The position numbers were made by a program, and so were the translations under genes. A stretch of DNA of 64,000 nucleotides from the NCBI RefSeq assembly GCF_040564635.1, contig NZ_CP159837.1, positions 163,801-227,800 of the forward strand, read 5' to 3'. Source of the stretch: Planktothricoides raciborskii GIHE-MW2. GTDB taxonomy: Bacteria > Cyanobacteriota > Cyanobacteriia > Cyanobacteriales > Laspinemataceae. Of the stretch, positions 45,223 through 46,458 are shown piece after piece (the stretch's first letter is position 1; every line of letters starts with the position of its first letter). The notes beneath the pieces are model-generated. The model did no database searches. It had not been told where the DNA came from and saw nothing but the letters and a program-made list of their open reading frames with translations.

Positions 45223-46458
45223 TCATTTCAGCCAATGACCAAATTCCTCGACAAAGCGATCGCCTATAATCGCTTCCCGAATGCGTCGAGTAAAGCGCAT
45301 CAGTTCGGTGATGTTATGGATCGACAGCAGAGTTAAACCCAGCACTTCCCGCGATCGCCACAAATGACCCAAATAAGCGCGGCTAAAATTTTGGCAAGTA
45401 TAACAAGGACAGGTTTCATCGAGGGGAGTGAAATCTTCCCGAAACTGAGCATTTTTAATATTCCAACGCTCACCGCGTACCATCACCGCGCCATGTCGAG
45501 CCCAGCGGGTGGGAATTACGCAGTCAAACAAATCCACCCCAGAGGCGATCGCCCTAGCCATTTCCTGATAAGTCCCCACCCCCATCAGATAACGGGGTTT
45601 CTCCTCCGGCAAATGGGGCGCCGTCACCTGCACAATCTGAGTAATTAAATCAGCGGGTTCTCCCACACTCACCCCACCAATGGCATATCCGGGTAAATCC
45701 AACTCACGCAAAGATTCTGCCGCTTGTTGGCGCAAATCCGCATAAATACCCCCTTGAACAATGCCAAACAACGCTTGATCTGAGCGCTTGTGGGCGGTGA
45801 TGCAGCGTTCTAACCAGCGATAAGTTCGCCCCATAGCTAACTCCACCGCTTCCCTAGTAGCAGGATAGGGAGGACATTCATCAAACGCCATAATCACATC
45901 AGCCCCCAAAGCATTTTGAATTTGAATCGAACGCTCAGGGGTTAAATGGATCATCCTTCCATCCCTGGGGGACTTGAAAGTGACACCTTCTTCATTAATT
46001 GTTCTAAACTGACTTAAACTAAACACTTGAAACCCACCAGAGTCGGTGAGAATTGGGCCATCCCACACCATAAAACGGTGCAAACCACCGGCTTGTTCAA
46101 CGATTTTTTCCCCGGGTTGCAGGTGCAAATGATAAGTATTAGCTAAAATCATTTGAGCGCCGGTATCAACTAATTGATCCGGGGTCAATGTTTTTACCGT
46201 AGCTAATGTCCCCACAGGCATAAAACAAGGAGTTTCAACGCAGCCATGAGGTGTGTAAAAGACTCCAGCCCTTGCTTGAGTCTGGCCGCAGCAAGCTTGA
46301 CGTTGAAATGTAAAGTTATTGGCTAAATTATTGGCTAAATTATTGGCTAAATTATTGGCTAAATTATTGGCTAAATTATTGCCTAAATTATTGCCTAAAT
46401 TATTGCCCAAATTATTGCCTAAATTATTGCCCAAATCTTCGCGTAAATCTTCGCCCAC
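45223..46458 (-). CDS. tgt: Queuine tRNA-ribosyltransferase (tRNA-guanine transglycosylase) with a repeat-encoded (LGNN)5(LANN)5 N-terminal extension
   Basis: [28 protein letters not shown], zinc site CxCxxC...H ([17 protein letters not shown]). There is no in-frame ATG/GTG/TTG between the repeat and the conserved core, so initiation must be at or beyond the 12-bp repeat. Confidence 0.85.
46312..46440. repeat. 12-bp tandem repeat (GGCTAAATTATT / GCCTAAATTATT)x about 10 inside the 5' coding end of tgt
   Basis: Seen directly. Always in frame because the unit is 12 bp. Confidence 0.95.

Follow-up and report, generated by a model that had tools for sequence, protein, structure and literature searches.

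We believe that tgt in Planktothricoides raciborskii GIHE-MW2 most likely encodes a functional Tgt that carries, as predicted from its sequence, a variable low-complexity N-terminal tail of 28-44 residues, and that this tail has an unusual source. It is encoded by a tandem array of twelve 12-bp units, and the unit is, judging from aligned gene starts, the ancestral tgt start codon together with codons 2-4. The array lies within a stretch of 64,000 nucleotides of contig NZ_CP159837.1 (hereafter the window, in whose coordinates all positions are given), where tgt and its surroundings comprise the following features.

45223..46458, minus strand: the longest tgt reading frame, 411 aa, from a GTG start and with the stop codon included (ORF list, Pfam PF01702)
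45223..46314, minus strand: the conserved core of Tgt, beginning at F49 (TTT ACA TTT) and ending with the stop codon (37-protein alignment)
46315..46458, minus strand: the array of twelve 12-bp units (Tandem Repeats Finder, pattern search, codon parsing)
46517..46969, minus strand: a hypothetical protein gene of 150 aa upstream of tgt, identical to WP_054467760.1 of Planktothricoides
45007..45144, minus strand: psbK, the downstream neighbour of tgt (Pfam PsbK, E = 1e-26)

The order 150-aa gene, tgt, psbK is also found in the longer contigs of relatives, and cobS lies upstream of tgt on the opposite strand. Pfam PF01702 (TGT) spans residues 61-405 of the 411-aa product (E = 7e-156, profile positions 2-347 of 357), solved TGT structures (PDB chains) match it at E about 1e-109, and an alignment of 37 cyanobacterial Tgt proteins places the conserved start at F49/F51. 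The window's Tgt retains all residues that are invariant among the 37 sequences, itself included. These include D139, D193 and D312, by analogy with Z. mobilis TGT the presumed catalytic aspartates, and C350, C352, C355 and H381, presumably the Cys3-His zinc site. With dN/dS of 0.04-0.08 against all relatives, taken here as a proxy for predicted enzyme function, the core is by this measure under strong purifying selection.

These observations bear directly on the notion that tgt is heading towards inactivation in this strain, through poor translation or a harmful tail following loss of the core-proximal TTG. A start codon at the canonical position is indeed absent, and several automatic calls, for this strain (P0002, P0122) and for three relatives (P0003-P0005), give a 332-aa product with its N-terminal strands deleted. 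Nonetheless, the core is intact, with its invariant residues and low dN/dS, the frame is open from the GTG, and five other alleles with TTA in the proximal unit stay conserved; we therefore give decay very little credence. The 332-aa calls begin at an internal ATG (M80 of FMPVGT, window 45223-46221) and drop about 30 conserved N-terminal residues, conserved strands included. They are most likely an annotation artefact caused by the combination of a GTG or TTG start and a repeat. The 411-, 403- and 395-aa products obtained from the three starts discussed below were looked up in the protein collection, and none had an exact match there; the collection thus has no annotation of this allele at full length.

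The array itself is highly regular. Each unit starts with xTG or TTA, followed by GGC, GCC or CGC and two polar codons. In the coding direction from 46458, units 1-3 read GTG GGC GAA GAT, TTA CGC GAA GAT and TTG GGC AAT AAT; units 4-7 are TTA GGC AAT AAT, TTG GGC AAT AAT and two copies of TTA GGC AAT AAT; and units 8-12 are four copies of TTA GCC AAT AAT and one TTA GCC AAT AAC, after which the core opens with TTT ACA TTT (46314-46306). Tandem Repeats Finder reports a 12-bp array at 46311-46436 with 10.4 copies, 95% matches, no indels and a score of 194. A two-unit pattern matches nine times in the window, always at the tgt array, with none expected (100 shuffles). The array is in frame, and the translation of the 45223-46458 ORF begins MGEDLREDL(GNNL)5(ANNL)4ANNFTFQ. 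The peptide GEDL-REDL-(LGNN)5-(LANN)5 thus precedes an intact core, and the (LGNN)5(LANN)5 tract that the first-pass annotation had ascribed to an in-frame 12-bp tandem repeat at the 5' end of tgt is borne out by both the repeat finder and the translation. The extension had been put at about 55 residues; with the core beginning at F49, 44 residues lie beyond the canonical M-x-x-x-F-x-F N-terminus.

Short-read assemblers struggle with this array, and one could suspect that the repeat is an assembly artefact, or else that it belongs to an antisense gene, since the other strand holds a 93-aa ORF (plus strand, 46319-46600, MAKLLAKLL...). In L082, a metagenome scaffold obtained independently from the same strain, an N gap interrupts the array. 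Both flanking halves are reproduced exactly in that scaffold, which indicates that the array is no artefact of one assembly, and other samples yielded twelve more loci with homologous arrays. For the antisense ORF, Pfam returned nothing above threshold; the ORF mirrors the repeat, begins within it and extends, on the opposite strand, into the upstream gene's 3' end. We regard neither form of this explanation as credible. The gap in L082 (2753-2853) falls exactly within the array and could reflect either the limit of short-read length or copy-number heterogeneity within the sample.

Comparison with relatives brings out how labile the array is. Members of the P0001 protein cluster and their contigs provided thirteen related loci, the window included; a metagenome scan with a 32-mer conserved in the clade gave no match. 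The thirteen alleles carry the following numbers of units.

12 units: the window
10 units: L086
9 units: L087, L088
8 units: L089, L090
6 units: L081, L091, L084
5 units, one of them 15 nt long: L085
3 units: L083, L092, L093

L087 and L089, with nine and eight units, have cores that are 99.1% identical, and L081 and L086, with six and ten, are 97.3% identical in the core. The first of these pairs is the kind of difference between very close isolates by which a hypermutable tract is recognised. The only indel that is not of 12 nt is the 3-nt one in L085. The comparison of tgt 5' ends among related strains that had been called for thus yields alleles of 3, 5, 6, 8, 9, 10 and 12 units, all in frame, as anticipated by the earlier suggestion that length would change in whole repeats without frameshifting. 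From these alleles, unit number and unit sequence evidently drift quickly among populations of the Planktothricoides clade.

Where did the unit come from? We examined how tgt begins at 80 cyanobacterial loci (L001-L080). In 78 of them the start codon lies no more than 8 codons from the F-x-F motif, and in 66 of these 78 it lies exactly 4 codons ahead of it. The start codon itself is TTG in 40 of the 78 loci, ATG in 34 and GTG in 4. This is a strikingly conserved use of a weak start, given that in Synechocystis only about 4% of the annotated start codons are TTG (bioRxiv 10.64898/2025.12.20.695498). Laspinema, the nearest outgroup (81% identity), has TATAAT, 30 nt, a single TTG GGT CGC GAT and then TTT ACG TTT. 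When the leaders are aligned, the Planktothricoides clade's first unit (GTG GGC ...) and the CAATTATT upstream of it match the Laspinema TTG start and CATTAATT. The conserved start position in cyanobacteria and the single Laspinema copy together identify the 12-bp unit, on alignment grounds, as the ancestral start codon plus codons 2-4, an origin that the first-pass annotation had overlooked.

The course of events that we propose is a simple one. The first 12 nt of tgt, a start codon xTG followed by codons for Gly, a polar residue and Asn or Asp, would have been duplicated in tandem, and slippage would then have enlarged the duplication into an in-frame minisatellite whose upstream-most copy retained the native promoter-proximal leader. 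Initiation would still occur at the GTG at 46458, with the other eleven copies being read as Leu-(Gly/Ala)-Asn-Asn. In this strain, changes of TTG to TTA and of GGC to GCC would each have been amplified, leaving the seven units next to the core with no start codon. Microhomology was considered as the seed of the first duplication and rejected, the upstream ATAATT lying 13 nt, not 12 nt, from the next one.

The substitutions among units carry information on whether the tract is translated. A minimum spanning tree (MST) over the 34 distinct unit types requires at least 40 substitutions, distributed 14:5:21 over codon positions 1, 2 and 3 of the tgt frame (chi-square = 9.65, df 2, p about 0.008), although the substitutions of such a tree are not fully independent, and part of the apparent constraint could stem from concerted evolution among units. 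In none of the 76 units does nucleotide 2 depart from T or nucleotide 11 from A, and every unit opens with TTA or TTG, except that first units have GTG. The tract is free of in-frame stops in every allele, an outcome with P about 0.10 under neutrality and hence weakly significant. This is the pattern of a translated sequence that keeps a Leu-small-polar-polar period, and from it we infer that the tract is probably translated.

At which codon translation begins is a separate matter, for which the following features are relevant.

46456..46458, minus strand: GTG of the first unit, the likeliest start and the positional homologue of the ancestral tgt start (Laspinema alignment, conservation)
46432..46434, minus strand: in-frame TTG of unit 3, an alternative start giving 403 aa and 36 extra residues
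46408..46410, minus strand: TTG of unit 5, in frame and the last codon that could be a canonical start, giving 395 aa and 28 extra residues
46315..46398, minus strand: seven core-proximal units, all with TTA (two TTA GGC, five TTA GCC) and no start codon
46483..46485, minus strand: in-frame TGA upstream of the GTG, which closes the frame there
46497..46502, minus strand: TATAAT, a putative -10 element 38 nt upstream of the GTG (clade conservation)

The putative -10 box reads TATAAT or TATGAT in the clade's alleles, and in Laspinema TATAAT stands 30 nt before that gene's own start; a scan for consensus promoters found no -35/-10 pair at this site. The 28 codons adjacent to the core are only TTA, GGC, GCC, AAT and AAC, and start codons, near-cognate ones included, are absent. 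The canonical N-terminus is thus closed to this allele, which must add 28, 36 or 44 residues, and an extension of at least 28 is unavoidable. The claim that no alternative initiation codon precedes the core thus stands for these 28 codons and fails for the array, where the TTGs at 46434 and 46410 are in frame; nor, for the same reason, is 46458 the only start available, TTG being the usual tgt start in cyanobacteria (40 of 78).

Our preferred start, held with somewhat more conviction than doubt, is the GTG at 46458, which would give a 44-residue tail. It is favoured by its alignment with the Laspinema start, by its conservation and by the 14:5:21 codon-position pattern. The first-unit GTG is kept in all ten alleles with five or more units, and gene finders call relatives from it. 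Six of these ten long alleles (the window, L091, L087, L089, L090 and L088) have TTA in the core-proximal unit, which makes upstream initiation the rule there. By the same observation we set aside the idea that the core-proximal TTG is the conserved true start and the whole array a 5' UTR.

A start at one of the internal TTGs (46434 or 46410), alone or alongside the GTG, is a less probable alternative. If so, two to four units at the upstream end would belong to the 5' UTR and the tail would have 36 or 28 residues; the array would serve as a series of weak alternative starts and yield mixed N-terminal isoforms. The prevalence of TTG among cyanobacterial tgt starts speaks for it, as does the three-unit lineage, L083, L092 and L093, in which the first unit has decayed: the GTG position has become TGA in L083 (1692-1694) and TTC in L092 and L093. 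Initiation in this lineage must therefore use a TTG within the array, which means that internal TTGs can function as starts, and one member (P0135) is called as MGDNFTFQ..., 367 aa. Moreover, the three candidates in the window are alike. The suggested check for a ribosome-binding site did not single out 46458, the Shine-Dalgarno match at all three being no better than that of random 20-mers; all three also sit in weakly structured contexts, and neither property discriminates them. On the other side, TTG and TTA alternate freely across internal units and alleles, as synonymous leucine codons would, whereas the GTG unit has the ancestral leader and is kept in every long allele. In L092 and L093 the frame is open back into the end of the upstream gene, with the consequence that a 400-aa product is called from an ATG inside that gene (P0134).

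With initiation at the GTG as the preferred reading, what kind of tail would result? An AF2 model from the 37-sequence alignment draws residues 1-47 as helices with pLDDT of 44-56, too low for us to claim a fold. For residues 51-80, a stretch containing the first core strands, pLDDT is 81-93, and the model is confident over the core. A Pfam search with the tail peptide returned nothing above threshold, the only hit being a sub-threshold His_Phos_2. We also considered, and dismissed, a pentapeptide-repeat protein (A(D/N)LXX), since the tail has a period of 4 residues and matches no pentapeptide-repeat family. The 44-residue tail, which has almost no Lys or Arg, would be of low complexity and is probably flexible or weakly helical. 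In the alignment with Z. mobilis TGT chains, their residue 19-21 falls at query residue 56, and the presence of residues ahead of the first strand in solved TGTs fits an N-terminus that tolerates additions.

We regard the tract as most likely close to neutral, under no constraint beyond an open frame, solubility and the leucine period, a view we hold with one feature in mind, namely that the invariance of leucine (TTR) in every unit exceeds what is expected of a purely neutral tail. The first-pass annotation had offered a contingency-like or a neutral expansion; near-neutrality survives as the likeliest reading, while the contingency idea falls, because a 12-bp unit keeps the frame.

A functional alternative is a regulatory leader in which unit number would tune tgt expression. 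The tract would act as an unstructured, A/U-rich enhancer, or its run of Asn/Asp NAU codons would provide feedback, since the speed at which they are read would depend on queuosine, the modification made by Tgt. Queuosine (Q) is thought to modulate NAU decoding (PMC10570037). Several numbers can be read in this way: Q-modified tRNAs read 22 of the tract's 48 codons (46%), 21 of these being U-ending, compared with 12% Q-tRNA codons in the tgt core, 16% in the window's long ORFs and 19-50% across the tracts of the different alleles. The RNA of leader plus array is less structured than shuffled controls (z = +1.76), and copy number differs between near-identical alleles. At the same time, amplification of an ancestral fourth codon that already specified Asn or Asp fully explains the NAY enrichment as a matter of descent, and NAU density varies widely among alleles with no sign of compensation. 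Rfam covariance models run over 46200-46600 returned two sub-threshold chance hits and no preQ1 riboswitch or other leader RNA. We consider a regulatory leader improbable. The sharper version, an autoregulatory sensor in which Tgt synthesis or mRNA stability would track the Q status of the tRNAs and unit number would set the gain, we consider highly improbable. An RNA hairpin between the GGC and GCC halves of the array was rejected as well, its fold being weaker than that of shuffled controls.

In-frame coding minisatellites, or VNTRs, are an established feature of bacterial genes, for example the staphylococcal Ser-Asp repeats (PMC3324548; for a general review, PMC3899988). As in those, the tgt units lie head-to-tail, their length is a multiple of 3, slippage alters their number between close strains, and they encode a low-complexity tract joined to a folded domain. 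The tgt array differs in that the unit holds the gene's start codon, lies at the extreme 5' end and belongs to a cytoplasmic housekeeping enzyme rather than a surface protein; the copies are potential start sites as well as leucine codons. With twelve head-to-tail units of 12 bp inside an ORF, the array is most likely a coding VNTR and not a new kind of system.

The simple-sequence contingency loci of host-adapted bacteria provide a second point of comparison. In lic1 of Haemophilus influenzae, CAAT repeats lie between alternative ATGs, and in contingency loci generally the units are not divisible by 3, or promoter spacing changes, so that expression is turned on or off. In lic1-type loci and in tgt alike, a hypervariable repeat lies where an ORF begins, near alternative starts, but the 12-bp unit cannot shift the frame and sits downstream of the putative -10 box. 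With all alleles in frame and the array in that position, we rejected a phase-variable contingency switch. The STRR heptamers of cyanobacteria are 7-nt units in many dispersed, mostly intergenic copies. The genomic setting is similar, with heptamer arrays abundant in the window and the present genome full of short tandem arrays, pointing to a high slippage rate. The tgt unit, however, is 12 nt long, derives from coding sequence and within the window occurs only at tgt, which removes it from the STRR family. Lastly, N-terminal extensions from upstream GTG or TTG starts have been found in Synechocystis by TIS-Ribo-seq and proteogenomics (bioRxiv 10.64898/2025.12.20.695498). There too, cyanobacterial genes with rare start codons have a true N-terminus that differs from automatic calls; those extensions, however, are unique sequence and not amplified copies of the start region.

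Repeats abound around tgt. Tandem Repeats Finder gives 80 rows for the 64-kb window. Within long open frames, nearly all arrays have a period that is a multiple of 3, and most heptamer and other arrays lie between genes; across the whole window, almost all arrays with periods not divisible by 3 lie outside long open frames, and those with divisible periods lie mostly inside them. This distribution would fit slippage that is frequent throughout the genome and whose products are filtered by selection. The longest short-unit array is a 27-copy heptamer, CCATCAG, at 30748-30935. Just downstream of cobS, at 47930-48012 and 48137-48183, lie abutting heptamer arrays (TGGGGTG, GAATAGT) and a 9-bp array of five copies, CCGGAAGCC, which create mechanical ORFs such as GFRGFRGFR.

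Repeats also extend or enter other reading frames. An ORF that by eye resembles MutL (39945-41891, minus strand) extends upstream through heptamer and 16/23-bp arrays (41680-41887). Its N-terminus, MIVDCWLLFVVCC..., is nonsense and an internal MTPTIQTLPPEVVNLIAAGEV start looks real; the repeat-extended part is probably not translated. The ORF at 2558-3517 (plus strand) holds an in-frame His-rich HSDHHSDHNS... from a 12/36-bp array (2751-2843), and the adjacent one at 749-2557 (plus strand) an in-frame His-rich HSEHSGHSGH... from 9/42-bp arrays (1829-1984); by eye the two look like copper-resistance proteins of the CopB/CopA type. Outside the window, a Tgt of 408 aa from a JGI metagenome (P0023) carries an N-terminal (SQQSAVS)n, with a 21-nt period equal to three heptamers, before the canonical LSANFSFQ. 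Here the ORF has probably been prolonged through a heptamer array lying upstream, and the case is separate from that of Planktothricoides.

The array suggests a simple route by which a start site may shift and an N-terminus may grow. Slippage would copy a start codon along with the next few codons; at tgt, the first copy would keep the leader while later point changes would erase the starts downstream. The truncation of tgt to 332 aa by several automatic calls, in this strain and in three relatives, is of practical concern for annotation, and the array itself could be used as a strain marker for Planktothricoides blooms. Finally, if it were true that the tail or the NAU-rich leader modulates Tgt output, then tRNA modification would be linked to the translation of its own enzyme.
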